Shown here piece after piece: positions 29,328 through 60,448 of a DNA stretch of 64,000 nt; position 1 is the stretch's first letter; each line of letters starts with the position of its first letter. Location of the stretch: contig CAXXFK010000030.1 in assembly GCA_963663965.2 (NCBI GenBank), positions 64,001 through 128,000 on the forward strand, read 5' to 3'. The position numbers and the translations under genes were made by a program. Under the pieces are notes generated by a model. That model was not told the origin of the DNA, made no database searches, and was given only the letters and a program-made list of their open reading frames with translations. Source of the DNA: Sedimentisphaerales bacterium (GTDB taxonomy: Bacteria > Planctomycetota > Phycisphaerae > Sedimentisphaerales > SM23-30).

Positions 29328-29791
29328 CGGGCGGTTGTAAGTGTTGCTTTAGTAGTGGGTTAATGCCGGTTTTGTGTGGATTGGGTTCGTTTTGTTTTGG
29401 GTTGGCGGCAGTATGAGAAGGGGGCTATTTAAGAAAGTACGGCCATATTCCGTGGGGAAGTGGAGATAGTGGAGAGAACGGGCTGGTCGGGTGTATCGGG
29501 ACAAGTCTTTAGCGACGGTGGGAAAGCAGGGAGATGAAGAGAACGAGACCAGATAAAACGAGGATGTAATTTTAATGTGTTTTAATATAAGAAGTTATAA
29601 CCACGAAGCGCCTTCGGCTGCACGAAGAGCGCCCTCCTGAGGCGGATCTACGACCTGCGGCGCTACACGAAGGGCCAGTGGCCTGGTTTAGGTATTGATT
29701 TAAATGGTTTCTTTTTTGATTAAAATGCGATAATCCATTAATTTACAGTGAGATAGAGATCGTTTTTTTATTATTGGGTTCGTTTGGGAAC

Positions 29792-29919
29792 AAGGTGAAT
29801 AGTCAAGAAGGCAAGAAGTCGGGAAGGTGAGAAGGCGAAAAGGCGAATAGTCGAAAAGGCAAAAAGGTAAGTAGGTAAGAAGGCAAGAAGGTGAGGAGGC
29901 AAAGAGTCGAAAAGGTGAA
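29792..29919 (+). repeat. 16 tandem degenerate octamers (consensus about AAGGYRAR)
   Basis: aaggtgaa tagtcaag aaggcaag aagtcggg aaggtgag aaggcgaa aaggcgaa tagtcgaa ... aaggtgaa, counted directly. Confidence 0.9.
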
Positions 29920-30034
29920 GAATTAAAACCCTGTTCATCTGGGCCTACCTTATGTTGGCGGTATTTGGTTTTCAAAGAGCGCATGGTTTAATGGCTTTTT
30001 TGTTTCGGATGGCGGGAGGATTAACCTTTGGGTT

Positions 30035-30063
30035 ATTATAGGGCATTGTTTTGTGTAAGTCAA
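30035..30063 (-). promoter_or_regulatory. sigma70-type promoter
   Basis: TTGACT-17 bp-TATAAT on minus strand. Confidence 0.8.
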
Positions 30064-30819
30064 ATATATTGTTATGTATTTTTATTAGTTAATTTGTGGC
30101 TGTTTGATAGGGGGTGATTCTGGATTATGGCGTGGCCGGGGCGTGTTGGGCGGGCCAGAAGGGTGGCTGGTTTAGAATTGGATTGATTCTTGATATTGAG
30201 ATCGTATAATAAAGGGGTATTCAGGTTGATTTTACAAAACTGGTTTGAGTGGCTGACCATGGAAAGAGTAATGGACAAGGATATTGTGTTTGGCCGGGCC
30301 GGCTGTGGGGTTGGGTGGCGATGCGCATTGGGAGTGTTTATGGTGAAGCGGGTACTTTTTAACTGATGGGAAATTTATGCATGCTGATTTTCAGTTGATG
30401 ATTTTGGGATTGATCGAGATAGTGTTGGCGTGTGACCGGCCGGTTTTGCAGGAAGTCTCAGGGGGGTCAAGCCGCAAGCAAAGAAAAATCGTTCACGCAA
30501 GGCCGCGAAGCCACGAAGAGTAACAGCCATTTAGACAGGATCACAGGATTGATAGGATGGATCAGAAGGAATGTAAAATGCAGAATGCAAAATGGGGAAG
30601 GGTGGCGTTGCTTGTGACATTTTGTTTTTTAATAGAGATGGTTACATGATGGCAATTGACGCGTCAGGCACCCACAAGCTCGCTTTGCTGCGCTTGAAGA
30701 TGGTACTCGAGATGGGGTGTCGAGGCTGGCCGGCTATTAGCAGGAAATATAATGTATCCTTAGATGAGGGAGGCTCATTGTCAAATGATAAGATCCTGTC
30801 ATCTCGATTTATTTAAAGA

Positions 30820-31092
30820 GTGCAATTAATGGATATAATTTTCAAAATATTACTTAATGACGAGGTTACAACTATACCATTAGGTTTAATATGTTTATTT
30901 TTAGCACATCATACGCATAAAAAAGTGAAGGCTAAAAACTTAGAGTTGCTAAAGAAAGGGGATATCACTGAGACAGAATGGTTAGAAAAAGAAAAGTCTT
31001 CAAAAGTTCTCCCTATAATTATTTCCATATGTGCCATCATTGGAATCATTTTTGAGATACTGGCTTGGTTATCGCCAGGAAATAATCAATGA
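30820..31092 (+). CDS. small two-TM hypothetical protein
   Basis: AT-rich 90-aa ORF with two hydrophobic segments. Confidence 0.6.
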   Translation: MQLMDIIFKILLNDEVTTIPLGLICLFLAHHTHKKVKAKNLELLKKGDITETEWLEKEKSSKVLPIIISICAIIGIIFEILAWLSPGNNQ

Positions 31093-31268
31093 AGAAAAAA
31101 GCAAAATATGTAATGTTGTATATGGCGCTTGTTTTAGGCTGGTCGCTTTCTGTATATAAAAATATTTCAGAGAACATTGCCATGGATAAGGTAATTATCA
31201 TCGGTGTGATTAGTTTTATCATGTTATCGGCAATGTTTGTATTTATGGTAAAGAAATGGGGGCGCTAA
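31089..31268 (+). CDS. small two-TM hypothetical protein (59 aa)
   Basis: Hand translation MKKKAKYVMLYMALVLGWSLSVYKNISENIAMDKVIIIGVISFIMLSAMFVFMVKKWGR; ATGA overlap with previous gene. Confidence 0.55.
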   Translation: MKKKAKYVMLYMALVLGWSLSVYKNISENIAMDKVIIIGVISFIMLSAMFVFMVKKWGR

Positions 31269-31554
31269 TATTTAAAATTTCAGACAGGATCACAGGATTG
31301 ACAGGATGGATCAGAATGAAATTAGAACTGTATGCCAATCAGCCGGAGTACAAGTGCAGCACTAGGGCGATTAGCACTTATGTGAGCATTGAGTAGGGAT
31401 GTTGAGACTGGATAGAGTTCTGAACCGTTGGTATTGAACCCCAATCAATATTATTCTCAATTGCCCCATAGCTGATTTTGTGTGAGATGGGTAAAAGAGA
31501 TTAATGGCAGAATATTTCTTTCACCACCTCAAAAAAACAATTCTGAAATATCAC

Positions 31555-32304
31555 TCAATCACAGGGATAAGTCAACCATTTTGAGGATAAGATGGAAAAG
31601 TCGATCATATTCACTGAATCATCATGATTCAAGTCTGCCGTCAGTAATAGTTGATCAGGTGTTTTAAGCCACTGCTGAACCATTTCATTTAAATCGAGTA
31701 AATCGATATGACAATCGCCATTGATATCAGCCGGTTCAGGGACGAACTCCATGCCGATCTGCATAAAAATCCCATCTTCACTATAATCGAAATAATTGGC
31801 AGTGAAGGAAATCGTCTCAAATGATCCCTCCAGTTGTATTGTTCCATTTGTGTCATATCCTTTCGGATTGTCTCTTAATATCCCAGATACTATATTGTCC
31901 GCAACTAAAAAATCCGGATCACCACTCAGGCGAATAATATTGGAAGTTGAAAAAGTCAAGCCTGAAGCGAGAGAGTAGAAATGGAACACAGGATTTTTTA
32001 CCGGGGCAGAAAATGTCAGGACATAGTTATAGGTATATGGTGCCCCGCGAAAACTCACTAAATCTGTGTTCGCTATTGGAGGGGTAAATAATGACATACT
32101 GAATCCAGTAAAACTATCATCTGTCACGCCATAGTCAATATTATATCCAGAGAAGCTGACTGCAATACCACCCAGATTGCCAGAGGCCATGTCATTTACC
32201 GTATCAACCACAGTCCAGTCAGTAAAGGTAATCGTTGATGCCTGCGCCAGCAAACATATTGTCCCTAGAAGGGCAATGCACAGATAAATGGTTATGTTTT
32301 TCAT
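31555..32304 (-). CDS. secreted protein with C-terminal dockerin-like (EF-hand pair) domain
   Basis: Signal peptide; ADINGDCHIDLLDL...W / ADLNHDDSVNMIDF...W duplicated Ca-binding loops. Confidence 0.8.
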   Translation of the reverse strand: MKNITIYLCIALLGTICLLAQASTITFTDWTVVDTVNDMASGNLGGIAVSFSGYNIDYGVTDDSFTGFSMSLFTPPIANTDLVSFRGAPYTYNYVLTFSAPVKNPVFHFYSLASGLTFSTSNIIRLSGDPDFLVADNIVSGILRDNPKGYDTNGTIQLEGSFETISFTANYFDYSEDGIFMQIGMEFVPEPADINGDCHIDLLDLNEMVQQWLKTPDQLLLTADLNHDDSVNMIDFSILSSKWLTYPCD

Positions 32305-32449
32305 ATCTTATTCCTTTGTCAGTAATCGGTTATCGATAAACTCAGGGCATTTTACTACAACAATATTGTCCGATTCATCTACCACTTCAATTAAGAATGA
32401 TAACATATTATTGGGAAAACTTCTAAAAGAATCTAGTATCTTATCAGGC

Positions 32450-32554
32450 ACCATCACCTTGCCATACGATATTAATTATATCAATGAGGTCAAGGTAGTT
32501 AAGCGGGAGGAGGATGGAATGTCTGGAGCGGAAAAGAATAAAGATTTACCATAA
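32450..32554 (+). pseudogene. 3-prime remnant of YceK/YidQ-like lipoprotein gene
   Basis: Encodes TITLPYDINYINEVK...MSGAEKNKDLP, collinear with 33951-34055 (TITLPYDLYHIKDVK...MPGAEKNEKSP). Confidence 0.75.
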
Positions 32555-32559
32555 AGGGG

Positions 32560-33669
32560 GTGAAGAAATGGGTTGAACCACCGAGAATACCGAGGGCGCC
32601 GAGGGAAGGGCCGAAGGGTTTTAAGCGGCTTTTGGGCAGGATGGATGGATGCGAGGCAAGGGCAATGCGAACTGAAAATATAACAGCCGAATTTAACCAC
32701 GAAGCGCCTGCGGCTACACGAAGAGCGCCTGCGGCGCTACACGAAGGGCCAGTGGCCTGGTGGATGGATGAAATTTTTTGGCGAGAGTCTTGGGAAAAGC
32801 CGGCGGCGTTGGTGGATGGCGGCAGTGCCGCAGCCAGATTTGGCGATATTGTCGAGCGGTACGAATATAATGCGTATGGCAAGACGGCGATCTATACGGG
32901 GGCCGGGGTGGATGGGGACTGGTTTACCGGGGATGATGTGGCGGCGGAGGAGTCGGCGGTGGGCAATGCGGTTGGTTTTACGGGGCGGACATTAGACAGG
33001 CACCACCTGGCTGATTCGCTGGATGATGGGGCGTTGGCGATGATGGATTACCGGCATCGGATGTATGGGCCGGGGATTGGGCGGTTTGGGCAGCGGGATC
33101 CGTTGGAATATATCTCAACAAATACTTATTTTTTATTTGCCGCAAGATCAATTTATAGTGATACACATGATGACATTCTTTTAAATATATTAGATGATTA
33201 TTCTATTTTATTATTGAAATTTTCTATATTTGGATATTATAGCGATGGGTTGAATCCTTATGAATATGTCAAAGGGAAATCTACGACACAGATGGATCCC
33301 AGTGGATTAGTTTGTGGAGATGCCGCTACAGATTGGATCGTCCCAGATAAGCCTTTATGGGTAGTAGATTTTTCAAAAGCATGTGAAGAACATGATTCAT
33401 GCTATTGGGGATTTCCTCTTTACGCAAATACAAGATTCAATAATTATTGTCATTTGACAAAGGAAGATTGTGATTTAAATTTCTTAGATGATATGAGAGA
33501 AAATTGTCATGATCAGATTAGTGGCTTTCTTCAGGATTTTAGAATGTGGCTTTGTCATAAATTGGCAGGGATTTATTATGGAGCTGTAGATAAAGCAAAA
33601 CGTGCTAAAACAGGTTTTGCAAATTCGAGGATAAACAATTGTGGAGAATGTGAGTTCAAGTGGGAGTAG
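32560..33669 (+). CDS. orphan Rhs core fragment with C-terminal phospholipase A2-like toxin domain (true Rhs sequence starts near 32800)
   Basis: VERYEYNAYG, GN..GFTGR, YRHRMY.P.IGRF.QRDP, NPYEYV, DPSGL; C-terminus DFSKACEEHDSCY...CD..F...M...C...C...A..YYGAV. Confidence 0.85.
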   Translation: MKKWVEPPRIPRAPREGPKGFKRLLGRMDGCEARAMRTENITAEFNHEAPAATRRAPAALHEGPVAWWMDEIFWRESWEKPAALVDGGSAAARFGDIVERYEYNAYGKTAIYTGAGVDGDWFTGDDVAAEESAVGNAVGFTGRTLDRHHLADSLDDGALAMMDYRHRMYGPGIGRFGQRDPLEYISTNTYFLFAARSIYSDTHDDILLNILDDYSILLLKFSIFGYYSDGLNPYEYVKGKSTTQMDPSGLVCGDAATDWIVPDKPLWVVDFSKACEEHDSCYWGFPLYANTRFNNYCHLTKEDCDLNFLDDMRENCHDQISGFLQDFRMWLCHKLAGIYYGAVDKAKRAKTGFANSRINNCGECEFKWE

Positions 33670-33713
33670 CATATCGATTAGACTAGGATTGCATGATTAT
33701 AGAAAGGAACAAT

Positions 33714-34055
33714 ATGAAAAATGTGGTGATATTATTTTGGCTATTGTTAATAGCCGGTTGTGCCGCAAATGCCAAATATGATAGCGGGTATCGGTATCCA
33801 TATGCTGCGACCGGGACCGATTTTCACATGATTGGCTTATCAATCTCGGGAAAGCCTGATGACGCGGAACCGGACGCGTTTGATTTTTTGTATGACCCGG
33901 TTTATATTCCTTTGTATATTCTGGATGTTCCGGTTTCTCTGGTATTTGATACCATTACTTTGCCATATGATCTTTATCATATTAAAGATGTTAAGAAGGG
34001 TGAGAGGGTGGCGGATGAAATGCCTGGAGCGGAAAAGAATGAAAAATCACCTTGA
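33714..34055 (+). CDS. YceK/YidQ-family lipoprotein, candidate immunity protein
   Basis: Lipobox IAGC; Y.AT..D and LDVPVSLVFDTITLPYD motifs; directly after toxin. Confidence 0.75.
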   Translation: MKNVVILFWLLLIAGCAANAKYDSGYRYPYAATGTDFHMIGLSISGKPDDAEPDAFDFLYDPVYIPLYILDVPVSLVFDTITLPYDLYHIKDVKKGERVADEMPGAEKNEKSP

Positions 34056-34648
34056 GTTCATGAAGGGCCCAAGATACCGTGGACAGTTACCGTATAATTG
34101 ATGCGAAGGCATGGGTGAGGCCCGACGGGCCGCGAGTTTTTAGTCGTGGCCGTGAGGCCTCGGGAAAGATGGGCGAATGGTAACAGAGCCCCGATGGGGT
34201 GAAAAGGAAATTGTTAAAGATGGATGACTTGATTAAAATATTCTGTCGGCCCCGCCATAGGCGGATCTGCGACCTTTGGGCCTTGGGAGTACCATCGACC
34301 CGCATTCCGGAACCTGACGGTCCCGGCTAGACACTGGCGGCCCGTTGGGCCTCAGGTGTGCGATGTGAGATTATCAGAAGCGATGTGTTATTTTCCTATG
34401 TCTGGTCATAAGAGCTTTAAAATAGGATATTGCCGAATAAAAACACGCTGAAGCGTGAACTCCGTACGGTTGCTGGTGATTTTTGTTTTTAATGGAGATT
34501 GTGTCATGATGGGGAATGATACGTCAGGCACCCACAAGCTTCGCTTTGCTGCGCTTGAAGGTACCCGGGATGGGATGTCGAGGGCACCCGGCGGGATTGG
34601 ATGTAGTGGAAATCCCGGATGCCAATTCCGGTTATGGAGATAAAAGCG

Positions 34649-35329
34649 ATGCGTTATTTAATGTTTGTATTTATGGCTTTGGGTATGAGTGGTTGTTGTC
34701 TGCCGGGTTTATATTACACCGATACGCTCCATGGCGCGGCCCGTTGTAATAATGTCAAGGCGATTGCCAAATTGTTGAGCGAAGGGCATGCGGTCGATGA
34801 GAGTCTTTCCAGATATAAGACGAGTCCGTTGTTTCATGCGGTGTCTTATGGCAGCTATGACGCTGCCGTTTATTTGATCGAGCAGGGCGCGGATGTGAAT
34901 TATCTAAACGATCATGGACAAACCCCGGCTTTCGATTTACATTATAGTTGGAATGGGATCAAGCTGGCACGGGCGTTGAAGGATGGCGGGGCCGATTTTA
35001 GTATCGTTGATCAATATGGCCGTACAGCCTTGAGAAACAATGTGGCTTTCGAATGGAAAAGCGGGCCCCGATCTTATCGCGCGGCGGAAGGTTTATTGAA
35101 GGCCGGGGCCGATCCCAATGCTAAAACCTGGGACAAGGAATGGCCCGAATTGATGTACGCGGCGAGTGATGGGGATACCCGGCTGGTGAAGTTGTTGCTG
35201 AAATATGGAGCGGATCCGTGTTGGCGGGATCTGAATGATCGAACTGCCCTGGATCTGGCCCGGGAGGAGAAGGCTTGGAGGGTGGTAAACCTATTGGAAA
35301 AATATGATTGTGAAAATGGATCGAAGTGA
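34649..35329 (+). CDS. ankyrin-repeat lipoprotein
   Basis: Lipobox MSGC; LH.AA, LIEQGADVN, LLKAGADPN, LLKYGADP, TALDLA repeats. Confidence 0.88.
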   Translation: MRYLMFVFMALGMSGCCLPGLYYTDTLHGAARCNNVKAIAKLLSEGHAVDESLSRYKTSPLFHAVSYGSYDAAVYLIEQGADVNYLNDHGQTPAFDLHYSWNGIKLARALKDGGADFSIVDQYGRTALRNNVAFEWKSGPRSYRAAEGLLKAGADPNAKTWDKEWPELMYAASDGDTRLVKLLLKYGADPCWRDLNDRTALDLAREEKAWRVVNLLEKYDCENGSK

Positions 35330-35572
35330 GATTGTGACAGGATGGACAGGCTATAAGATCAAGGAGATACGATTTGAGATTTGATAAGAGATCACTGGAG
35401 GGGTATGGGCGGTTTACGAACCGGCCGTACGTTTAGATGGGATCTGGCGGGTGGTTAGATGGTCTTAGGGATCAGGAAGAACAAATTGTGTCGTGAAGGG
35501 CATCACGAAGCCAGAGGGTTGTGTGTGTTCCGGGTTGTAAAGAGTGTCCTGCCTGGGCCAGCGGGATCTGGA

Positions 35573-36127
35573 TCAGTAGAGATGGCCGCTGTTCCGGGCG
35601 TAGTCGTTGAGGACCTGGCGGGCCTGGGGGCGGAGGATGTCACGGATGACCTCGATCTGGCGGGTTTGATATTTTTCGACCCAGTTGTCGGGCTTGTCGC
35701 CTTCGTCGAATCCGATGGCGCGGGCGTCGGAATCGCGGGCGCAGCAGACCAGGGAATCGATATGGCACCAGGGGATGGCGCCCATGCACATGGCGCAGGG
35801 TTCGCAGGAGCTGACCAGCTGGTAAGGGGAGTGGCCGGAGAGCCGGTAGGTTTCGAGCGTTTGGTGGGCTAGCATGATAGCGACGATTTCGGCGTGGGCG
35901 ATACTGCAATTGAGGGGGACGACCAGGTTGGCGCCGGCGGTGAGCAGGGCGCCGGTATCGCGATTGAAGATGGCGGCGGCAAAGGGGCCGCCAGTGTTGT
36001 ATTCAACGTTGAGCCGGGAGAGCTGGATAACCAGTTCGGCGCGGCTTTCGACGGTTTGGTAAGCCGGTTGGGGTGGCTGGGAGTTGATTTGGGCCAGCCA
36101 GTTGGGGAGTTCAAGTTCGATTTTCAT
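35573..36127 (-). CDS. nucleoside/guanine deaminase (CDA-like zinc deaminase)
   Basis: GGPFAA, AHAE, SCEPCAMC, IGFDEG; upstream TCGACT-17-TATAAT promoter-like sequence. Confidence 0.9.
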   Translation of the reverse strand: MKIELELPNWLAQINSQPPQPAYQTVESRAELVIQLSRLNVEYNTGGPFAAAIFNRDTGALLTAGANLVVPLNCSIAHAEIVAIMLAHQTLETYRLSGHSPYQLVSSCEPCAMCMGAIPWCHIDSLVCCARDSDARAIGFDEGDKPDNWVEKYQTRQIEVIRDILRPQARQVLNDYARNSGHLY

Positions 36128-36306
36128 AGTAATATCCTTGAGTATGGCTGGATTATAGTGGATGATAGGAGAGGAGTCGATGGCTTTTTATTGGGGATTG
36201 GATTTATAGGGTGTTGCAGGCCTGTTGTAAAGAGAGGTTAGTCAGTATCGCATTTTATTGGCGCAATGGTAATGGCATTATCTTATGGAAGGAGCTGTAT
36301 GGCGAT

Positions 36307-36912
36307 ATGAAAAGAAAAGCAGACATGAAGGAAATGGCGGATGGTCAATCGGCGGAGGTGTGGGGTGAGGTGCTGGCTATTGAGGGAAGCTGGGAGGATC
36401 TGGCGATGGTTGAGTTGGAACGGAAGAAGTTGCGCCTGATCGCGCGGAGTCGTGGCGGGACGGTGTTGTTTGTGGGGCCGGAGGTTGCGGCTAAAACGCT
36501 GGCGGCGGGGCTGCTGGCGAAGAGACAGAGCCGAATCCTTTTGCGGGTGGATCTGGGCCGAGTGGTCAGACAGTATATTGGAGAGACAGAAAAGCAGATC
36601 GATCAACTTTTCAGTCAGGCTGAGAAGGCGGGCTGGGTTTTGCTGTTTGATGAGGCGGATGCTTTGTTTGGGAAACGGACGGATGTGAATGATGGGCATG
36701 ATCGTTATGCCAACCAGGAGGTGGGTTATCTGCTGGGCAGGCTGGAGCCATATCGTGGGCTGGCTATTATGACTTCGAATTGCCGGCATGAGAGTGAGGT
36801 GGACTGGCCGGTTCATTTTAATTATGTGGTTCGATTTGAGGGTAAGGCGGAGGAGAAGACAATCAGCCGCCGGGGGCTCAGGGCGGTCAAGCCGCAGGCA
36901 AAGAAGAAATAA
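36307..36912 (+). CDS. single-domain AAA ATPase fragment with degenerate Walker A
   Basis: YIGETEK, LLFDEADALFGKR, DRYANQEVGYLL; Walker A reads GPEVAAKT. Confidence 0.75.
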   Translation: MKRKADMKEMADGQSAEVWGEVLAIEGSWEDLAMVELERKKLRLIARSRGGTVLFVGPEVAAKTLAAGLLAKRQSRILLRVDLGRVVRQYIGETEKQIDQLFSQAEKAGWVLLFDEADALFGKRTDVNDGHDRYANQEVGYLLGRLEPYRGLAIMTSNCRHESEVDWPVHFNYVVRFEGKAEEKTISRRGLRAVKPQAKKK

Positions 36913-36989
36913 ATCACAGATGGGCGCGAAGCCAGGAAGGGGGAACAGTCGAAACACGAATTTATGTGAAGAGGCACTCATAATCGATT

Positions 36990-37758
36990 TAACCCGTTAT
37001 TTTAAAAGTTGTTATGGTTATAATTTTGCTGGTTGGGTTTGTTTAGTTTTGGGGATTTTTAAACGCCCTGTGCGGTTGTGAGGCAAACAAATAAAACGGC
37101 CTTGATTACCATGGAGTTCATAGAAGTTCATGGAGAGAACAGCCTTAAAAATTTAAAGGATTAAATGGTTAAACGGCCGGGTTTCACACTAAGGCGCAAA
37201 GATACCAAGAAAAACAGCTGAACTATGAATTCATAGTAAAACTGGTAAATTATACTGATGGAAAACCGGGAATATGATCTTAATATATTATAAAAAAAGA
37301 AGTTAGAACCACGAAGCGCCTTCGGCTACACGAAGCGCGCCTGCGGCGCTACACGAAGGGGGGGACGGTCGAACTACGAATCCCGATGAATCGGGACGAA
37401 TGGGCACTTAAAATTATCATATAATTCATTATTATGAATGTGTTTATGGCTGTAATTTTTTTAATTGGGTTCGTTTGGGATTGGGGTGCGGTTGGGGGGC
37501 TGGTATGGGGTTAAATTCAGGAATTGGGCGGCCCTGATGGCTTCATATTGTAGTGAGAAAAAGATTAGGAATCGAAAAGGCGAATAGACGAAAAGAAACA
37601 GCCGGGGAGTATGTCGTTGTTCCGGTGCGTTTTGATATTTTGTTGTCAAAGAGCGATTTCAGGCTGGGTAAGCATATAAATACGTCGGTTAAGCAGGATT
37701 CCGTACTGGGGGTGGTTACCGATTGTGATATTATAGCATGATGTTGTATGAACGTCAA
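36990..37758 (-). other. non-coding composite element B, homolog of element A
   Basis: Promoter, boxA-like GCTCTTTGACAA, GAAAAGGCGAATAG, two bipartite motifs and AACCACGAAGCGCCTTCGGC repeat, in same order as A. Confidence 0.7.
37730..37758 (-). promoter_or_regulatory. sigma70-type promoter
   Basis: TTGACG-17 bp-TATAAT with extended TG on minus strand. Confidence 0.8.
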
Positions 37759-38462
37759 ATATATTATCTGTTTTTGTATAATAAAAACTATGGAAAGGTT
37801 CAATAAATTGGTCAGCCGCTGATACGGGGATACCGGGGGGAAAAATTGTCCGCAGATGGCGCAGATTTGCGCAGATGGGCTGCGATCTTGGGCGCGACAG
37901 GATGGAGGGGAATAAGAAATTGATTTCACCACAGAGAGGGCTCAGAGGACGCAGAGAAAAGGCAGAAGGAATTTAAGCGGGGGCCAGGCTATTGGAAAAG
38001 GGGATGGTTTGCGGTTGCAATTGGGGGTGGGGGGCGGTAGAGTGATAGGGTGTTCCATGAGAACTGTTTTGAGGATACCCATCGGGTATGAAAATATCCG
38101 GGCGCTCGCATGAATAAAGACGCGAAGCATCGCGTCTCTACCAGAGGGCGTTATTAATTATTGATGGTATAACTATGGAAAGAGTTTTGTCTGGTGATAG
38201 TTTGGGACGGAATGGTCTGGTAGGACGGGATTGCCTGTTGACTCATGAGAAATATTGTTCGGAATTGATTTGCGGGTCAATTTGATTGAAATAGAAGGGA
38301 GACATAGAACTGATGGAGGTTTATACGCTATGATTCACCCCGATACTGTGCTTGAAGGTAGTATCTTGCTTGATGAAAATGAATGACGATATGGAAGGGA
38401 CATTGATTTGATCGGCATGGGTAACGGGGGTTATGCTAAACGACTAACAAAGGAAGCATTCC

Positions 38463-39581: not shown

Positions 39582-39867
39582 GGCGGGCGAGCCGCGTTAA
39601 GAAATCAATAACTCACACAAGCCACTAAGACACGAAGATAAACAGCCATTTAGACAGGATCACAGGATCAACAGGATGGATCATGAAGAAGTGATGGTGG
39701 TTAATGATGCAGTGATACACCGGCAAACTTTGATTGTTCGGCGCCACCTGGATCCATCCTAGCTATGTCCGGGTTATGGAGCTGGAGTAAAGGCCTATTT
39801 TGAACCGCAGATCCCGATCAATCGGGACAGATGAACGCAGATAAAGCAAAGGGATAAGAGGAAAACG
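38546..39867 (+). repeat. about 1.3-kb segmental duplication (copy 2 at 45588-46913)
   Basis: Collinear coding sequence plus about 290 bp of downstream non-coding DNA. Confidence 0.92.
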
Positions 39868-40011
39868 CAGTAATAAAACAAGAAGGCAGGAAGTTATGAT
39901 TTTAAGAAGATAATATGATGGTTCAGACAAAAGCACGAAGGCGTACAGAAAGGCAGAATTTTGACAGGATGAAAGACGACATGGGTAATGTGACTGGCCG
40001 AAAGGATTCCT

Positions 40012-40347
40012 ATGCAATTTCGGAAGAAAGATAATTTTTATGTCGTAACATATATTACAGGCCCTACTCATAACTATCTTGCATTAGAATTTTCAAAGGA
40101 TATTTATAATGACAAGGTATCAGTGGTAAAACTTGGAGAGAAAGACTCTTTAATTATCGAAACAAAACTTTTAGATACTGTGAAATCGGGCGTAAATGAG
40201 GCTAATAAAGATTTTAATGCAGATTTTAGAATACAAACCATACAGTATGTAAGCGATGATACACCTAAGTATGATATATATAAACAATTAGCATATTCAA
40301 TAATTGAAAGAATTATTACACAAGATGAGTATGATGCCATTATCTAA
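40012..40347 (+). CDS. AT-rich hypothetical protein
   Basis: 111-aa ORF, AAGGA RBS, low GC. Confidence 0.65.
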   Translation: MQFRKKDNFYVVTYITGPTHNYLALEFSKDIYNDKVSVVKLGEKDSLIIETKLLDTVKSGVNEANKDFNADFRIQTIQYVSDDTPKYDIYKQLAYSIIERIITQDEYDAII

Positions 40348-49424: not shown

Positions 49425-49467
49425 TTGGGGGGGATGGATATGTGAGTTGATACCCAGCGGGTATGGA

Positions 49468-49494
49468 TAGAGACGCAAAGCATTGCGTCTCTAC
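49468..49494. repeat. REP-like palindrome TAGAGACGCA...TGCGTCTCTAC (also 38118-38141, 63847-63873)
   Basis: Three copies seen directly. Confidence 0.8.
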
Positions 49495-49551
49495 CTGCGG
49501 GTGGTTGCAATCGTTATTGGTAGAAAATAACTGTTATTATGGAGGCTGAGT

Positions 49552-49740: not shown

Positions 49741-49831
49741 AGAAGTGGGCTGGATATTGACGGCTGGGGAATGCAGTGCATCTGGTATGATGGATATGAA
49801 AATAAAAACGAAAAAAATATTGGAGTTGATC

Positions 49832-51995: not shown

Positions 51996-52190
51996 ATAGA
52001 GTAAACGGCCGGTTTTTTACACAAAGCCACCAAGCCACAAATAAATCAGTCAAGTAGATGAAACCACGAATTCACTCGAATAAACCGCTGACAAAAAAGC
52101 GGATTGATTTGCTTAGTTTTGAGGTGGTAAATATATAAGGATGTTTTTGTTGTTAATGTATTACCGGTAGTTAAAAAGGTGAGGTTTGTG

Positions 52191-52555
52191 ATGTCGAACG
52201 CGTTGAATGTGATTTATCCTTATAAACATGATGGGATGTGGGGTTTTTTGACGATGCGCGGGTGGGGTTGGATAAGGAGCCTTTTGTGGAGGGCGCCGAT
52301 ACGATGATCGATCAGGTGGTGGCGTTCAAGGGGCTGACTAATCCGGAGAAGGGGTTTCCGGCTGATTTTTCAGTGCAGGCGAGTTTCCGCGCTATGATAT
52401 CAAGTTTGACTGGATTTCGGGCCGGGGACGGCGGGAACTGGTATTGGGTCGGATGAATTACTGATGGAAGGCTGGCTGTGTCCCGGCTCTGTTCAAGTAT
52501 TTTTGATAAGGCGCCGAAAACGATTTATGCCCGGTTTGAAGATAAATCGGAGTGA
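52191..52555 (+). pseudogene. DUF6717-like protein, frameshifted
   Basis: MSNALNVIYPYK..GMW/FDD..GL.KEPFV.GAD.MID/GGNWY/MEGWLCPA/FKYF..APK.IY pieces across frames. Confidence 0.7.
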
Positions 52556-52612
52556 CTGAAGTGTTGTTAAGGTTATTTTGAATATGATGTTGTAATTTGA
52601 TAGAGGTTTATT

Positions 52613-53393
52613 ATGAATACGAAGCGATGGCGGCTGGTGGCGATGGTGGTTTTTTTTTGGTTTTGTGCGGACAGGGCGGCTGGTATGTGATATCGGCGGA
52701 TGAGCCGGCGGGGGCGCCGGTGATTTTTATGATTGGGGATTCGACGATGGCGAATAAGCCGCTGTTTCCGGCGCAGCCGGAGCGGGGCTGGGGGCAGTTG
52801 CTGCCGCTGTATTTTAAGGATGAGGTTCGGATCAGGAACCTAGCGCTGAACGGGCGCAGCTCCAAGAGTTTTCGTGATGAAGGGCGCTGGAAGCCGGTAA
52901 TGGAAGGCCTGCGGCCGGGCGATTATGTGATTATTCAGTTTGGGCATAATGATCAGAAGTCGTACGATCCGAAGCGGTATACGGAGGCTTTTAGTTCGTT
53001 TAAAGAGAGCCTGGGGCGTTATGTCAGTGAGGCGCGCGCCAAAGGGGGGATTGCCGGTGCTGGCGACGCAGGTGGTGCGCCGGAAGTTTTCGGAAGAGGG
53101 GGAGCTGGTGGATACGCATGGCGATTACGCGGTGGCGGTGCGGCAGCTGGCGGCGGAGCTGGATGTGCCGCTGCTGGATATTGAGAAGTTGAGCGGCGAA
53201 CTGGTGCGGCAGCTGGGGCCGGAGCGCTCCAAGAAGCTGTATATGTGGGTGGAGCCGGGTGAGTTCGATGCGGTTAAGAGTGAGAAGAAAGATGAAACGC
53301 ACCTGAACGCGTTTGGGGCGTGCCGGATCTGTGATCTGGCGGCGCTGGAGATTCGGGCGAAGGTTGGGGGACCTGGGACGGTGGCTGCGGTGA
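52613..53393 (+). pseudogene. rhamnogalacturonan acetylesterase (SGNH, CE12-like), frameshifted
   Basis: GDST, GWG, NGRSSKSF, QFGHND, DETHLN..GA; shifts at poly-T (about 52650) and poly-G (about 53045). Confidence 0.82.
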
Positions 53394-53445
53394 TTTTGGC
53401 GCTGGCGGGAAATAAGATAATCACTGAAGTGAAAGGGCCTTTATA

Positions 53446-55525
53446 ATGTGTGGAATGGATTTTATTAAGATATGGCGGTTGGGGTCTTTGTTTATCATGG
53501 GGTGTTTGGTCTTGGGATTGGCCGGGGGGTACGCGGTGGGTGCGGCGGATGAGGCGGCGGGGAATCTGCTGGGTAACTCTTCGTTTGATGAAATGAGGCC
53601 GATTCCGGCGGGTTGGGAGTTCAGGGACTGGAATGAGACGGGTCGAAACGCATGGTGGGGATGGGAGGATGGCGGGCGGACGGGTCCGTGTGTGATGATT
53701 CGTTCGAAAAATGACCAGGGGGTGGACGCGGCCTGGACGGCGAGGGTGACGGTGGAGCCGAACCGGTTCTATCGGCTGGCCGGCTGGATCAAGACACGGG
53801 GATGTGCGGGGGGCCAGAGGGGCGCTGCTGAATATCCAGAATATGCAGTCGGTGAGGACCGAGGCTATTACCGGGACGCGGGACTGGACTGAGGTGTCGA
53901 CAATTTTTCGAACGGGTGATTCGCCGACGGAACTGGAAATCAACTGTTTACTGGGTGGCTGGGGGGAATCGACCGGGCAGGCCTGGTTTGATGATATTTC
54001 GCTACAGCTGATAGACGACATAGACGAGTTGGCCGGGGCGGTAGTGACGGTGGATGAGGGGGCTAAGGCGTGGGCTTACAGTCCGATGATCTTTGGGGGA
54101 TTTATCGAGCACTTTCATCGGCAGATCTATGGTGGGATTTATGATCCGGGTTCGGAATGGTCCGATGGACAGGGATTTCGTCGGGATGTGATTGAGGCCT
54201 TGAAGGAATTGAAAGTATCGGTGGTGCGCTGGCCGGGCGGGTGCTTTGCCAGCGGGTATCACTGGCGGGATGGTGTGGGCCCGGTTCGGCGGCCGGTGCC
54301 TGATCCGGTGTGGGGAGTGGTGGATTCGAACGCGTTTGGTACGGATGAGTTCTGGTTGTGGTGCGCGCGGGTGGGGGCCAGGCCTTATATCTGTACCAAC
54401 GCGGGGAACGGCACACCGGAGGAGATGCGGGATTGGGTATTGTATTGTAATGGGCGGGAAGGCGCGATGGCCCGGCTGCGGCAGAAGAACGGGCACGAAC
54501 AGCCACTGAATGTCCGGTATTGGAGTATCGGTAATGAAAACTGGGGCGGGCATGAGATCGGGGCCCGGACACCGGCGGAGTGGGGACCGCTGGTGCGGCG
54601 GTGCGCGGAATTGATGCTGGAGGCGGATCCGGAGCTTGTTCTGCTGGCGGCGGCGACGCCGGATCGGAACTGGACGCTGCCTTTGTTGAAAGAGGCGGGG
54701 GCGTATCTGGATTATGTGTGTATTCACGGGTACTGGCTGGGCAACTGGGAGGTGAACGCAACGCCGGATTACCTGTCCTGTATCATGCAGTCGGAGAAAC
54801 CGGAGCAGACGATTGTCGGGGTGGCGCGGATTGTGGATGAGGCGGGGTTTGGAGACAAGATCAAGATCGCGTTTGATGAATGGAATCTGCGCGGCTGGCA
54901 TCATCCGGGTTTTCCGCGGAAGGTGGTGGGTGACAGGGATGATATTGAGGCGAATAAGCTGATTGCGGCGAGGGATAAAAACGCGATCGCGTCACAGTAT
55001 AGCATGGCGGACGCATTGTTTTCGGCGTCGTTTCTGAACGCGTGCCTTCGGCATGCCGAGGTGGTGGGTATGGCGAACATCGCCCCGATTGTAAATACGC
55101 GGGGGCCGCTGTATGTGCATTCCAAAGGGGTATTGAAGCGGACCACGTTTCATGTGCTGTCGATGTATGCTAATCTGCTGGAGAGTGAGGTAGTGGCGGC
55201 GCAGGTACGATCGGGGATGCTGACGCATGCCAGTGAGTATGTCGCAATGGTGGATGGGGTGGTGACGCGGGATGCCAGTGGCAGGCGGTGGGCGCTGGCG
55301 CTGGTGAATCGTCATCCGGAACAGGCAGTGGAGTGCCGGATTCAATTGGAAGACCGGGTATTGGATGGTGTTGTGGATGCGACGGTTCTGAGCGGGGATT
55401 CACCGGATGCTTATAATGACCTGGATCATCCGGAGCGGGTGATAGCGGAGAAGAAACAGTTGCCGGTGCGGGATAATGTGATGACGCTGGGGCCGCACTC
55501 GTTGACGATTGTGAAGGTTGAATAG
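53446..55525 (+). CDS. GH51 alpha-L-arabinofuranosidase with N-terminal CBM-like domain (one frameshift near 53810)
   Basis: FIEH...IYGG, RWPGGCF, FGTDEF, WSIGNE, AFDEWN, ANIAPIVN. Confidence 0.88.
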
Positions 55526-55631
55526 CCGGGGGTGTTGGTAAGGAGTTGGTGATTGAATAAATAGGGGACCCCGGGGGTTTTGGGGACGCCCGGGGTGTGT
55601 TAATCTTAACCGACAGGATTGAGGTTGAGGA

Positions 55632-56645
55632 TTATTTGGTTGTGAGTGGCCGGAAGACTTCTTCGGGGGGGAGTTTCATGGTGGTCCAGACGTTGGGATC
55701 GGTGGCTTTGACGCGTTGGGCGACCTGTTGGGCGAGGTCGTTGTTGCCGGCTTTGTGTTCGAGGGTGGCCAGGTAGTGCAGGGCGAAGGCTTTGATAGCG
55801 GCGGGCCGGTCGGGCTGGGTTTTGAGGAAGGTTTCGATCTGGGTACGGGCGGCGTCGTAGTCTTTGTCCTGGGCGAGTTTGAAGGCGATAGTGAGGCGGA
55901 TGGGGTTTTTACTGAAGTCGAGTTTAATGGCCTGATCGGTGTGCTGTCGGGCGTTGTCGATCTGGTTGGCTTCGACGCATTTAACGGCCATGAGCAGGTG
56001 CAGGCCGGCGTTGTCGGGATATTTTTTGAGCAGGGGCTCGATCAGACGGATGGCTTTTTCGGGGCTGGGACGGTCGACGATGGTGCGGGCCCAGACGCCG
56101 TAATAGGGGTCACGGGCTTCGAGGATTTTGAGGTGTTTTTTCGCCAGGGATTTGTTGCCGCCGTCTTTGGATGCATTGTTGTTGTACATATTGATGAGAT
56201 CGAAGCGGGCCTCGTGGTGGTCGGGCTGGAGTTCGAGGGTTTTTTCGAAGGCGGCGATGGCGGCGCGGACGTGGTCGCCGAAGCGTTCGGGCTTACCGAG
56301 TTTGTACTGGTTGATGGCGTTGTAGACGCAGGTTTCGCCCAGCCAGAATTGATAGCGTGGGTTGGCGGGTTCGGCTTGGACGACTTTTTGCGCGGCGGTC
56401 TGGGCCGGTTCGAACTCGAAGAGATAGAAGAGCAGGCGGGAGTATTCGAAGCGGGCTAGGGCATCATCGGGATGGCCGGCCAGGTGGGTTTCGAGCAGGT
56501 CGCGGGCATCCTGATTGTGGCCATCCATGCGCAGGTCGTAGGCCTGCTGAGCGATGGAAGGCTTGGGGTCTTCGGCGAAGATCGGGCCTGTTAGGAGGGT
56601 GGTTAACAGGATGGTTAAGATGATGAAGGGCTGGGTGGTTTTCAT
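55632..56645 (-). CDS. secreted TPR-repeat protein
   Basis: Signal peptide, repeated A..FEK.LEL.P/KYPDNA helices. Confidence 0.8.
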   Translation of the reverse strand: MKTTQPFIILTILLTTLLTGPIFAEDPKPSIAQQAYDLRMDGHNQDARDLLETHLAGHPDDALARFEYSRLLFYLFEFEPAQTAAQKVVQAEPANPRYQFWLGETCVYNAINQYKLGKPERFGDHVRAAIAAFEKTLELQPDHHEARFDLINMYNNNASKDGGNKSLAKKHLKILEARDPYYGVWARTIVDRPSPEKAIRLIEPLLKKYPDNAGLHLLMAVKCVEANQIDNARQHTDQAIKLDFSKNPIRLTIAFKLAQDKDYDAARTQIETFLKTQPDRPAAIKAFALHYLATLEHKAGNNDLAQQVAQRVKATDPNVWTTMKLPPEEVFRPLTTK

Positions 56646-56751
56646 GATGGGATCCTTGGGTTGGGGGTATTGGTTGACTTGTTCCATGTGATCGGGATGG
56701 GGACGGCCGGCCATAAGCTGCGCTTGAAGGTGGTGCGCGGCATGGTCCGGG

Positions 56752-56982
56752 TCAGGAGGATTGGTATCGCCGGGTCTGGTTGGGGGTGGTGGCGCGGAGT
56801 TCGTTGAGGTTGATCTGGAGGGCGTCGCGCATGGATTCGTTGGCGGTTTGATAGTGCTGGTTGAGGGTTTGCTCGATGGCGTGGCGGGAGGCGAGGTAGG
56901 CGCCGGGGAAGAGGATGATCAGGGTCAGGATGGCGGTCAGCAGGCCGAGGACGATTAAGATGGCTATGGGTTTACGTTTCAT
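56752..56982 (-). CDS. small single-TM protein
   Basis: 76 aa; upstream TTGTCT-17-TATATT promoter-like sequence. Confidence 0.5.
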   Translation of the reverse strand: MKRKPIAILIVLGLLTAILTLIILFPGAYLASRHAIEQTLNQHYQTANESMRDALQINLNELRATTPNQTRRYQSS

Positions 56983-57319
56983 GATTGTGAGCCCCTAAAC
57001 AGGATTGTTTGTATATCTATATACAATATATCACACAACAGAGATAGAGACAAGTATTCTGGCCGGGATTTTTGGGCAGCGATGGGGGGGAAGGGATGTA
57101 ACTCGTTGTATATAGTTAAGATATATACATGTGTGGCCGGCGAAAAAATTTTTGTTTTTTCCCGGGCCGGTGGCAGTAGGGTTTTATCGGACCGGTTTAT
57201 TGCATATAAACCCTACAATCGTAATAAACGCACCGGGGAACCGGGTGAAATCGAGTTTCGGCCGGGTTGCCGGGCGGTTTTTTTTATCATTCCGGGCTGT
57301 CTATTTTGTAGAATGAAGG

Positions 57320-57401
57320 TACGAAGCGTTTTTATCTCCTTTCGCGGCGCTTCCGCCGACAGTTGCCTCCAATGCCCTGTGCAGCTGCCGGCTCTTTTTT
57401 T
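57320..57401 (+). ncRNA. candidate small RNA with two hairpins and U-tail
   Basis: TAGAAT at 57309; stems GAAGCG/CGCTTC and GCCGACAGTTGC/GCAGCTGCCGGC; both loops contain CTCC; T7 tract. Confidence 0.45.
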
Positions 57402-57409
57402 ATTGGGTT

Positions 57410-57470
57410 GGGACCCGCAAACCCGAAGTTGAAACTGCGGGCTATTTACGGTTGTCCCTGCCGGGACATA
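57410..57470. repeat. REP-like element (copy at about 58060-58110 flanking the DUF2007 gene; related at 47005)
   Basis: AGTTGAAAC.GCGGG.TATTTACGGTTGTCCCTG.CGGGACATA shared. Confidence 0.8.
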
Positions 57471-57487
57471 AGGTTTGGTACCTATTT

Positions 57488-57709
57488 CTATTTTTTATTG
57501 TAGTATTCGTCGAGAATTTTCTGGGCCTGGGTGAGGTCTTGCTGGTGGACGAGGATACGGACTTCGCCGGGGGCTTCGGCGCGGAGGCCGCTGGTGAGTT
57601 CGCCGATCATTTCGGCGTAGATGTCGTGTTCCTGGAGCATATTGATGATGAGGATGGCTTCGGTTTCGCGGGGAACGCGGGTGAGTTCGACGGGGGTAGG
57701 GGTGGTCAT
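57488..57709 (-). CDS. DUF2007 (putative signal transducing) protein
   Basis: EA.LI..ML.EH.I, VRILV...D...A..IL; AGGAG RBS. Confidence 0.8.
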   Translation of the reverse strand: MTTPTPVELTRVPRETEAILIINMLQEHDIYAEMIGELTSGLRAEAPGEVRILVHQQDLTQAQKILDEYYNKK

Positions 57710-58237
57710 GCGGAGCTCCTTTCCTGCCTGGGCGGTTAAGCCGCGGACGATATCAGAAGGTATTTCACACAAAGGTAAACAGCCAAAAGCGAGACCTATG
57801 AACACGGATAATTACAGTTTGATTCCGGATCTTAGGACCTTTTATTTTGTTGGGTATCTGCTATCGTTTTGGCCGAAACGTCTGGAGTATGATAGCAGGA
57901 TTGTTGGGGGAATCCAAGGATAAAGGGCGGGGGTGGGCGGGACCTGTTGGGGTGAAGTTGGGCGGGAAGTGGCTGTTGGGTTCGTTTGGAGTTGGAGGTA
58001 AGTTGTTGGGGTGTCGGGAATAATCCTGGATAAGGATGGCCGGGGTATGTGTTGGGTTTGGACCCGCAGTTGAAACGGCGGGGTATTTACGGTTGTCCCT
58101 GACGGGACATAGAAAGGGGTATCCCGCGGGGCGGGATGCTGTTTAATGGTTGTTGGTTGCATAGTTTTGTCCTTGTTTGGGGTTGTTGATTTAATTGGGA
58201 CGTTATTAAAAATATTGGGCAGGATGCCCGAGGTACG

Positions 58238-59675
58238 TTAGTAGTGGGTGGTGGTGATTTTGGAGGCGGGGGCGAGGTGGTTGACGAAGAAGTAGCGGAA
58301 GTGCGTCGATGATGTGGTCGTGGGTACCGTCTTTGTGGGGGAGTTCGGAGAGTGAGCCGGAGTTGAGGCGGGCGTATTTGAGGCTGGTGAGGGCCTGGAT
58401 GAGGTGATGGCATTGTGGGTTGATGATGAGCTGGGGTTGGCCGGTGGCGGGCCGGAGGGCGCGGCGGATGAGTTCGACGCCTTCGATAATGCGGGTGGGC
58501 CGGTAGCGGAGCGAGTAGCCCTGGGCGGCGAGTTCGTCGATGGGGCCGGTGCCGGTGATGTCGTTGCGGTGGCGGCCGGCGGGATCGCAGCTGATGGTGA
58601 GGGGGGCGGGCCAGAGATCGCGCAGGGCGCGGAGATGCTCGCCGAGGATCATGCGGGATTGGAGGTATTCGTTGAGGACGCGGACCTGGCCGCTGACGAT
58701 CTGGATGAGCAGGGCGGCGAGCGGGTTGCTGTAGCCGAAGTCGAGGGACCAGTAGACGGGTGAGCCGGGGTCGAGCCGGATGGGGGCGAGGTGAGCGGCG
58801 GGGTCGAATTCGTCGAAGACGACATCCTGGCGGGAGGGCTCGAGGCAGAGCATTTCGGAACGCCAGGCGGCGCGGCTGCTGCGCTGTTTGATGGCGATGG
58901 CGTCGTCGATGGCGAAGTAGCCGGCGGCGTTTTGGGCGCGGGACTGGCAGTCTTCGAGGAGCGGGCAGCGGCTGCAGTTGTGGTCGGAGCAGGGCTGGAT
59001 GACTTCCCAGAGGCACCAGCGGAAGAGGCGCATGTGGGTATCGGCGGATTGCCGGACGATATCGTGCATGAGGCCGAAGGGCTGGTGCATGGTACTGAGG
59101 ATTTCGAGCCGGGCGGGGATCTGGTCGCGGGTCTGGGTGGTGAACTGGGCGGCCTGCCAGACTTCGGGGTCGAAGAGTTCGATTTCGTCGCAGCGGAGGC
59201 GCTGAACGTGTTTGCCGCGAACGCTTTTCTGGGATTGGGTGAGGATGTCGACGCGGGCGCCGTTGGTGAAGCGGCAGTGGTCGGCGCGGGCGGGTTCGGC
59301 GAGATAGGGGCTGAAGCCGGCGTCGAGGTAGTGGCGGAGGTAGTTGTACATGAGGCGGGACTGGTCGTGGGAGCCGCCGAGGATGCAGGTCTGGATGTGG
59401 GGCAGGGAGAGGCATTCGATGAGGGTGGCGACGGCGCCGAGCTGGGTTTTGCCGCCGCCGCGGTTGGCCCAGACGATCAGGTCGCGGGGATGGGCGCGGT
59501 TGAGGATGCTTTCGCAGAGGTAATCGAAGGGGGAGTCGTGGTTAGGGCAGATGGATTGGGAGGGGATTTTGAGGTTGAGGGTGGTGAGGAATTGGGTTAG
59601 TTCTGCGGGGGTTTGGGGTGGGGTGATTGGGTTGGTTTGGGACGTTGAGTTGTTGTTTTCAAATCGAGAATACAT
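58238..59675 (-). CDS. phage terminase large subunit-like protein (1-nt insertion near 58298; corrected end DHIIDALRYFFVNH...THY)
   Basis: Walker A ANRGGGKT, Walker B LRCDEIE, ILST coupling-like motif, RNase H-like SLDFGYSNP, CDPAG, DHIIDAL; AGGAGG RBS. Confidence 0.88.
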
Positions 59676-59851
59676 AGCATGACCTCCTTTTTAAAAAAGT
59701 ATCTTTTGATTTTTTGAGTTTGTATACCGACTTCGTAATTAATTATTTATTGGTACCTTAGAGTACGATTAAAAGTTATTTTTGGCCGCATGTGGGCCGG
59801 CCTCATGCGGATAATTTAAGGTATTCGCTGCGCTCATGGATGTTCATATCA

Positions 59852-59885
59852 GCATGGGCAAATTTTTCAAATTTGCCCATCCTAC
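59852..59885. repeat. REP-like palindrome GCATGGGCAAA...TTTGCCCAT (also 41212-41237, 47915-47944)
   Basis: Three copies seen directly. Confidence 0.8.
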
Positions 59886-59911
59886 ATAAAATCGCACGGG
59901 TTGTGTTTATC

Positions 59912-60448
59912 CTATGTGATCATTAATTCATTGTTATAAATGGTGTTACGATCATTTTTTTCTACATTGGGTTCGTTTGGTATTGGGGGGTGTTTGGCTT
60001 CGTTTGTGGTAGGAGTGGCGTTGGGATTGCACTGGATGATGGGGGTGATCTGGTAGCCGGCGTCAAAGAGGATGTTTATGCAATTGTCGATGACCTGTTG
60101 ATATTCCCGGTCAGTGGGCGGGGTAAGAATGTTGAGGTCGTCATTTGATTTGGAAATGGCGAGAAATTGCTGGATGAGTTGGGCGGTGGCGCGGCGGGCG
60201 GTGATGTTATTTTCTGAGCGGGACTGGACGACGAGGCGTCGGAGGGCCTGGTGGCCGGCCCGGGTGGCGGTGAGTTTGTAGTCGCGGCGTTCGTAGGCGA
60301 TCAGGCCGGCCAGTTCGCAATGGTAGGTGTGGGTGTCGATGATGTACTGGCGCTGACGGTGGGTGGTGTTGATGATGGCGAGGAACAGGTCGTTGACGGG
60401 ATGGTGGTAGTATTGGGCCCGGGCGAGAATTTGCATGGCTCGATTCAT
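59912..60448 (-). CDS. hypothetical helical protein upstream of terminase, possible small subunit
   Basis: GAGGTG RBS, own consensus promoter, ALRRLV...SE...ARRA...LI helix pair; ends across the bipartite motif (PNEPN). Confidence 0.6.
   Translation of the reverse strand: MNRAMQILARAQYYHHPVNDLFLAIINTTHRQRQYIIDTHTYHCELAGLIAYERRDYKLTATRAGHQALRRLVVQSRSENNITARRATAQLIQQFLAISKSNDDLNILTPPTDREYQQVIDNCINILFDAGYQITPIIQCNPNATPTTNEAKHPPIPNEPNVEKNDRNTIYNNELMIT

Follow-up and report, generated by a model that had tools for sequence, protein, structure and literature searches.

Closest described systems

In the usual view, a bacterial chromosome is replicated from a single origin. IS91/ISCR rolling-circle elements and origins of transfer (oriT) start beyond the 3′ end of a gene, cross that gene to reach the DNA on its 5′ side, and have a ragged far end, with integration host factor (IHF) at oriT. 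A dispersed element partly like these was recognized in a window of 64,000 nucleotides, the whole stretch of DNA that was analysed (Sedimentisphaerales bacterium, GenBank assembly GCA_963663965.2, contig CAXXFK010000030.1, positions 64,001 to 128,000, forward strand). Its copies, here called units, combine a 25-bp dyad, a 12-bp box TTGG(G/C)TT(C/T)GTTT and often a promoter match facing the box, and clusters of the box flank multicopy genes, including that of a protein designated STGP. Judged from sequence, each unit is a dispersed promoter-driven element that may well be a start of one-way DNA unwinding or replication, with a probability of roughly 0.5.

The element is partly like bacterial interspersed mosaic elements (BIMEs), Bartonella run-off replication, IS91/oriT, and phage pac sites, and shows the full set of defining properties of none of them. 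With IS91/ISCR and oriT it would share the start side, the direction of travel, the ragged far end, and IHF. It differs from them in that flanking DNA is not duplicated among copies and that STGP shows no similarity to HUH/Y2 proteins, relaxases, or HUH transposases (PF01797 was not searched in the genome). Phage pac and cos sites, with their small terminase (TerS) and IHF, likewise have a directional effect of headful scale. They and the small terminase of gene transfer agents also resemble the element in a site within or beside a small helical gene, according to the part of PMC6854486 that was seen. The element is instead chromosomal and multicopy, no head genes were found in its genome with four queries, and STGP has no significant TerS homology.

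BIMEs, built from repetitive extragenic palindromes (REP) and associated with RAYT transposases, likewise number in the hundreds: short, scattered mosaic repeats that contain an IHF site, vary in presence from relative to relative, and are tied to a low-copy partner gene (PMC3184786, PMC2817692, in the parts seen). Unlike REP, the box is non-palindromic and forms no hairpin, and its clusters are co-oriented (79/80), not alternating; no similarity to HUH transposases was seen for STGP. The element has a long-range footprint, whereas none was seen for BIMEs in the same parts of PMC3184786 and PMC2817692. Run-off (escape) replication of Bartonella and Salmonella prophages likewise involves an additional origin in the chromosome that affects the host DNA around it; as far as the part seen of PMC2697382 describes it, one phage-derived locus with a helicase acts bidirectionally over hundreds of kb. 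Here, there are dozens of one-sided units with a footprint of 30–60 kb and no phage replication gene. The GC-skew rise of a replication origin is present at the units, on one side. No description of the box, the STGP family, or the footprint was found in the main text of the open-access literature searched. The dyad appears to be an ordinary kind of site, and the element and its footprint appear to be new.

A one-sided skew footprint

The source genome (G000) is a 7.24-Mb assembly of 42 contigs with 94.6% completeness. It contains 258 boxes (192 TTGGGTTYGTTT and 66 TTGGCTTYGTTT; about 7 expected) in 116 clusters, which were reduced to 88 units by dropping mixed-orientation clusters and single clusters without a dyad. 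Skew was scored for 56–65 of them, units near contig ends or with too few codons being left out; it was read along the strand carrying TTGGG, and 4-fold degenerate sites were balanced for gene strand, with crude open reading frames (ORFs) as gene calls. Replication sets were fixed before skew was computed: 10 paired-box units of a complete genome with 50 boxes (G078), 10 of the 17 STGP matches of an Acidobacteriota genome (G154), and 10 of the 21 of a Terriglobia genome (G152).

Total GC skew at 3–15 kb was higher downstream than upstream in 53 of 65 units. At 4-fold sites, it rose from 0.067 upstream to 0.243 downstream (46 of 58 paired units, p = 2.6 × 10−6), with 0.05–0.09 upstream beyond 4 kb, 0.19–0.32 at 1.5 to 40 kb downstream, a fade over 30–60 kb, and about 0.09–0.10 beyond 60 kb. 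The step was seen in genes of both orientations, and control skew peaks were symmetric. Circular shifts gave 0.015 ± 0.027 against the observed 0.184, and none of 1000 reproduced the step. About a quarter of the skew variance within contigs is explained by an additive unit model. At 8 of 65 units, negative skew gave way to positive; the reverse was seen at none. The step was retained in isolated units (21/27) and in units with a promoter match (28/35), whereas 81 look-alike promoters without boxes showed none.

The step recurs in the complete genome G078 (8 of 9 units) and in the Acidobacteriota genome (9 of 10). In G078, negative skew turns positive at several units, whereas an STGP-free genome (G004) has a smooth skew with no sign change over 400 kb. 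In paralogue pairs inside versus outside footprints, read on the TTGGG strand, the counts were 736:566 for G for A, 348:251 for G for C, and 579:462 for T for C. In G078 and G154, the 4-fold shift consists of C down and G and T up.

A G-rich strand leading away from a site is the trace of a fork for which that strand is the lagging template, or of its displacement. By this strand-asymmetry logic, the one-sided G-rich strand favours a one-way start of unwinding or replication at the units. In the proposed mechanism, the single IHF-like protein of the host would bend the dyad, an element protein, most likely STGP, would bind the box, and transcription toward the box would assist the start. Host enzymes, which must be assumed because STGP has no catalytic fold and no recurrent helicase, relaxase, or Rep neighbour, would carry the fork 30–50 kb in the 5′ to 3′ direction along the TTGGG strand, through the element into its 5′ flank. 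The footprint would come from a fork or a displaced strand starting at the unit, by run-off replication or in a rolling-circle or oriT-like manner, and units with promoter and box but no gene would be non-autonomous. Because the process would traverse the element first, it would help to explain the many dispersed, ragged-ended, and heavily recombined copies. What is observed is the fixed geometry, the abundance, the association of the box with the 3′ end of the STGP gene and with a facing sigma70 match, and the G-enrichment of native genes on the downstream side. We infer the protein steps (IHF homodimer binding and STGP–box binding) and the origin of the footprint in a fork or displaced strand.

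Several points weigh against the one-way start. The evidence for it is entirely compositional, and units, paralogue pairs, and genomes are not independent. The step is not significant in units without a promoter match (13/21, p = 0.10) or at lone boxes (13/20). It is weak in the Terriglobia genome (8/10; 0.037 to 0.105, p = 0.055), where the box is reversed relative to the gene, the step tracks the gene and not the box, and 4 of the 10 loci have no exact box; one contig of a box-rich genome (G109) has no clear skew pattern. At the 4-fold sites of the source genome, G gains (+0.108) while A, C, and T each lose, a pattern not predicted by simple single-strand deamination. The regression leaves a nonzero upstream term (0.12 vs. 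0.30). The strongest skew of the window (48–60 kb) lies upstream of its unit 3, 11–22 kb downstream of unit 2. STGP yielded neither a catalytic fold nor a known DNA-binding domain, genes for a helicase, a relaxase, or Rep do not recur in its neighbourhood, and no dyads were found beside boxes at loci outside the Phycisphaerae type.

G-quadruplex motifs were also considered. They occur at 56 of 88 units against 47 (range 40–55) in shuffles, and the signal is thus mostly composition.

Units of the window and of the genome

The features of the window are as follows.

29338..29362, no strand: 25-bp dyad, IHF-type site, unit 1
29381..29392, +: 12-bp box TTGGGTTCGTTT, unit 1
29400..60000, +: stretch with raised G-over-C skew, downstream of units 1 and 2
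29731..29755, no strand: 25-bp dyad, IHF-type site, unit 1
29774..29785, +: 12-bp box, unit 1
30035..30063, −: sigma70-type promoter match TTGACT-N17-TATAAT, facing the unit 1 boxes
36990..37014, no strand: 25-bp dyad, unit 2
37033..37044, +: 12-bp box TTGGGTTTGTTT, unit 2
37422..37446, no strand: 25-bp dyad, unit 2
37465..37476, +: 12-bp box, unit 2
37730..37758, −: sigma70-type promoter match TTGACG-N17-TATAAT, facing the unit 2 boxes
57976..57987, +: lone box without a dyad
58206..59675, −: gene for a terminase large subunit-like protein, apparently frameshifted close to the 3′ end, probably not part of a unit
59912..60448, −: family B ORF, 178 aa
59924..59948, no strand: 25-bp dyad, unit 3, inside the 3′ end of the family B ORF
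59967..60005, +: unit 3 box (59967–59978) and variant box TTGGCTTCGTTT (59994–60005)
60521..60549, −: sigma70-type promoter match TTGACT-N17-TATAAT of unit 3
60691..60714, −: CACAGTG..TTGAC motif close to the end on the promoter side, common to family A and family B units

The first-pass annotation had placed TTGGGTT(C/T)GTTT boxes at 29381, 29774, 37033, 37465, and 59967, each with TAA 43 bp upstream, as well as a lone box at 57976 and a variant at 59627. All of these are present, the five boxes on the plus strand, and TTGGCTTCGTTT at 59994 is a sixth. The palindromes are loose, as had been described: TG replaces TT at 29338, the copy at 29731 ends in GATA, and that at 37422 in TTTA. The unconserved intervening sequence was also borne out. 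At just 30–50% identity outside the motifs, the window copies do not count as recent duplicates, although young multicopy families make up part of the copies elsewhere in the genome.

Skew per 4 kb is 0.16–0.37 in the 29400..60000 zone versus 0.06–0.21 before 28 kb. Units 1 and 2 have the promoter match and the sites, but no family gene. The unit 3 boxes are read as NEPN and NEAK within the minus-strand family B ORF. Contigs from the source run (depth about 4) cross the first two window sites with no misjoin. Short tandem or hairpin repeats of 8–10 bp (CCACGAAG-, CGCAGAT-, and CACAGAG-type), with many recurrences in the sample, lie at 29600–29680, 37310–37370, and 37850–37970. Genes between units 1 and 2 encode phospholipase A2-domain, ankyrin-repeat, and deaminase proteins (32560–33669, 34619–35329, 35573–36127), and 61057–63823 holds a cytochrome c/porin-like fusion gene followed by a multiheme cytochrome c gene.

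Genome-wide, TTGGGTTCGTTT was observed 136 times versus 1.1 expected and TTGGGTTTGTTT 56 times versus 1.9 (fourth-order Markov model). TAA stands at −43 in 93 of the 192 TTGGGTTYGTTT boxes. TAA-N20-TA at offset 43 is found for 130 of the 258 boxes and for at most 4 at every other offset from 25 to 89, in agreement with the proposed enrichment at that offset. The logo of 51 dereplicated copies is TAA N4 TT N7 A N4 GTTA N18 box N G. The 43-bp spacing, described as invariant, holds within this genome but not in other members of the order, where the gap between dyad and box is mostly 22–24 (18 here), also +11 and +22, and boxes repeat every 10–11 bp. Similarly, the common orientation of the window copies extends to 79 of 80 multi-box clusters, but not to the genome as a whole, which has 130 boxes on the plus and 128 on the minus strand; inverted boxes were seen only in some relatives. 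A third family of six box clusters is mostly without the 18-bp dyad and without a promoter match (C6:4862, C10:150326, C11:67070, C29:151448, C32:56373, and C38:7995).

Beside the box clusters, the opposite, C-rich strand carries multicopy ORFs of two families. Family A is STGP itself (279 aa, 26 full-length copies). Family B has 17 tblastn matches in the genome, one of them in the window, and no homologs outside the genome were found among proteins of 97–312 aa. Of the 116 clusters, 53 have a TTGAC-like-N17-TATAAT promoter match directed at their boxes, where about 2 would be expected; the three window units all have one. Identity among the 26 STGP copies is 92.6%. Their 187 synonymous versus 70 non-synonymous variants indicate purifying selection, and heavy recombination shows in four gametes at 72–82% of informative pairs. 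Family A copies have mosaic leaders, shuffled upstream modules, and ragged ends. The motif GGATTG-N11-CAATCC-N12-TGCGC, with fixed spacing, ends 11 of them about 333 bp past the last box (e.g., C41:30388, C10:302881) and is absent elsewhere in the genome; the other copies end earlier. No terminal inverted repeats or target duplications were apparent from reading the ends of family copies.

STGP homologues were found in Phycisphaerae, Acidobacteria, and Alphaproteobacteria. A box lies at the 3′ end of the STGP gene in 57 of 82 loci, 55-fold above the flanks; in many Terriglobia it is reversed relative to the gene. Among 151 genomes of the order, whose kin are not independent, STGP is present in 46 of 50 with 15 or more boxes versus 12 of 101 with fewer, and many have 1–3 STGP genes with 100–300 boxes. 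In a phylum-wide sample, STGP is present in 9 of 121 genomes, and boxes elsewhere are near control levels. One Terriglobia genome (G151) has 88 STGP matches in 7.8 Mb. All six genomes of one planctomycete family have a single STGP homologue without the N-terminal motif and no boxes (e.g., L208:6162-6854, L210:5783-6412, L211:6145-6858, L213:2086-2691), mostly upstream of an ACP-FabZ-FabF-FabF-desaturase-like cluster, which is presumably of the ladderane type.

The excess of boxes over STGP genes, together with the mosaic, ragged-ended copies, would also be expected of repeats similar to REP/BIME or miniature inverted-repeat transposable elements that enter at one edge of segments already G-skewed for other reasons, such as one-sided rearrangement breakpoints or island ends, or that move together with that edge. 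The box-IHF-box layout indeed resembles BIMEs with IHF sites, in the part seen of PMC3184786. Such reverse causation is unlikely, since it is the downstream side that is anomalous: upstream windows equal the far background (|skew| 0.183 vs. 0.173; GC content at 4-fold sites, GC4, 0.615 vs. 0.618), whereas downstream windows differ from it (|skew| 0.282, GC4 0.704; p = 6 × 10−8 and 3 × 10−12). Genes conserved in relatives are shifted too (GC4 0.739 vs. 0.653; 60 vs. 34 genes), family A copies have no common flank beyond about 1.7 kb, and the 400 kb of the STGP-free relative (one genome, of much lower GC) show no such patches.

STGP and the terminase gene

The structural model of STGP shows a basic N-terminus and a helical hairpin (pLDDT 73). 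Searches against Pfam, NCBIfam, PHROG, and PDB assigned no family (the HGGxSTG model, E = 0.43, was below the cut-off), and fold searches found generic coiled coils only, with no specific match. Apart from one orthologous site shared by 7 loci, no neighbour gene recurs beside STGP.

This layout resembles that of TerS, in the part seen of PMC6854486, and 2 of 112 STGP members match TerS PHROGs weakly (E about 0.006–0.01). STGP could then be a dispersed small-terminase-like protein, with the box and the IHF site as a pac site, and a host-domesticated terminase or a gene-transfer-agent head would move roughly a headful of the DNA downstream. In size the footprint matches a headful, a single large terminase subunit (TerL) is retained in the order, and three Acidobacteria with STGP share a TerL-portal-capsid-tail cluster. 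The packaging explanation is nevertheless improbable: no portal or capsid was found in the source genome (PF04860, PF05065, two protein queries), STGP is nearly absent from phages and plasmids, and packaging alone would leave base skew unchanged. The TerL of the order has its own upstream helix-turn-helix (HTH) gene and occurs also in box-free genomes.

The window terminase gene matches PHROG 2 (E = 3 × 10−12). Of 151 genomes of the order, 136 have a single copy of it, as do 114 of the 118 of high quality (loci L107–L125, L219–L223). It usually lies behind ABC-ATPase-like, acetyltransferase-like, ParB-like, and HTH genes, labels that come partly from reading translations. Boxes do stand at either end of the gene in the window, as had been described; among the relatives' terminase loci examined, only 1 of 19 has a box. 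With a terminase that is single-copy order-wide, the link therefore looks incidental: the terminase is probably a separate domesticated gene beside which a family B unit landed. No head genes were seen near the order's terminase. In the three Acidobacteria, the terminase-portal-capsid-tail cluster is syntenic amid host genes (L271:9261-16365, L272:3651-10873, L273:9115-16966), a candidate gene transfer agent.

The dyad as a probable IHF site

The 25-bp dyad is probably a docking site of the DNA-bending protein IHF, a general host site and not a recombinase core. A symmetric-matrix scan of the source genome gave 534 strong dyads, 447 of them far from any box, versus 27–55 in total for column-permuted matrices. 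Dyads lie within 30 bases of 13 of 51 tRNA 3′ ends (e.g., C3:11392, C10:44328, C22:92862), versus 4 at 5′ ends and 1 at +200; three of the 13 adjoin integrase genes. The IHF consensus site is WATCAANNNNTTR (PMC8942017), and two inverted copies sharing the central W make exactly 25 bp with TAA...TTA ends. Dereplicated dyads match 6.5 of 9 positions in the IHF register versus 3.2–4.8 in other registers, 3 of the 9 having been used in dyad selection. TTR, the central W, and one A are kept; unlike WATCAANNNNTTR, the dyad is symmetric and its ATC part is weakly kept (A 0.44, T 0.26, C 0.16). Table 2 of PMC6907758, in which the IHF and H-NS motifs are apparently swapped, was not used.

The source genome has a single HU/IHF gene (PF00216), of the IHF-beta type with an Arg42/Glu44/Arg46 triad (RLEFRDFG aligned to RIEIRGFG), and its top PDB matches are IHF. 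The Arg-Glu-Arg triad of IHF-beta reads TTR, and IHF makes two kinks 9 bp apart around W. Therefore, a homodimer, suggested by the single gene, would read TTR on both sides. Homodimerisation and specificity of a lone IHF-beta are described as an open question in the part seen of bioRxiv 10.1101/2024.06.24.600358. The first-pass annotation had proposed a dimer-binding site plus a phased directional site; this is supported, and the one-sided footprint gives polarity more weight than that annotation could show.

Dyad-like sites also lie 41–43, 52–53, or 62 bp upstream of some canonical sigma54-type promoter matches (7 of 18 with a dyad score of 6 or more at 41–62 bp), near the box offset. Together with the sigma70 matches facing 53 of the clusters, this recalls a regulatory site: the box would be an operator, or an antisense promoter of atypical, sigma54-like type, with the IHF site lying upstream, and the skew would arise as a by-product. 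The sigma54 consensus spacing is GG-N10-GC; the box is one base short of it, and GC follows in 56 of 258. A local regulator would leave unexplained a footprint of 30–60 kb that is blind to gene direction, and box-free promoters show no step; this explanation has only a small chance of being right.

Attachment sites typically have IHF sites with boxes at fixed distance, and the tRNA-end dyads and shuffled family A modules fit the earlier suggestion of a tyrosine-recombinase core with an arm-type box, which is very improbable given 73 centre 7-mers among 130 dyads, linkage of 0.51–0.54 at the centre versus 0.34 in the spacer with no dip (55 family A modules), the 447 box-distant dyads, and 15 of 16 integrase genes (PF00589) lying more than 10 kb from a unit.

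The Chi/KOPS-type polarity proposed at first is partly seen, as upstream flanks are G-skewed in 46 of 65 units and downstream flanks in 58 of 65. The comparison was rejected: sites are clustered and bipartite, with about one unit per 80 kb, and 19 of 65 units are not co-oriented with the upstream flank.

Implications

The dyad is a candidate for the site that a lone IHF-beta-type protein recognizes. The dispersed element, with origin-like one-sided skew steps at dozens of places, contrasts with the single-origin view of bacterial chromosomes, and skew-based origin calling can fail in STGP-rich genomes. It is possible, if rather doubtful, that a selfish gene family installs dozens of DnaA-independent one-way origins in many uncultured Phycisphaerae and Acidobacteria and that much of the genome is copied from them. 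These element-borne origins would consist of an STGP initiator, the box, an IHF bend, and an activating promoter, and their frequent firing would rewrite local base composition. For STGP, a very large unnamed family (35,493 clusters at 50% identity, E ≤ 1 × 10−10), the one-way start would be a first testable role, and the box a candidate DNA site.

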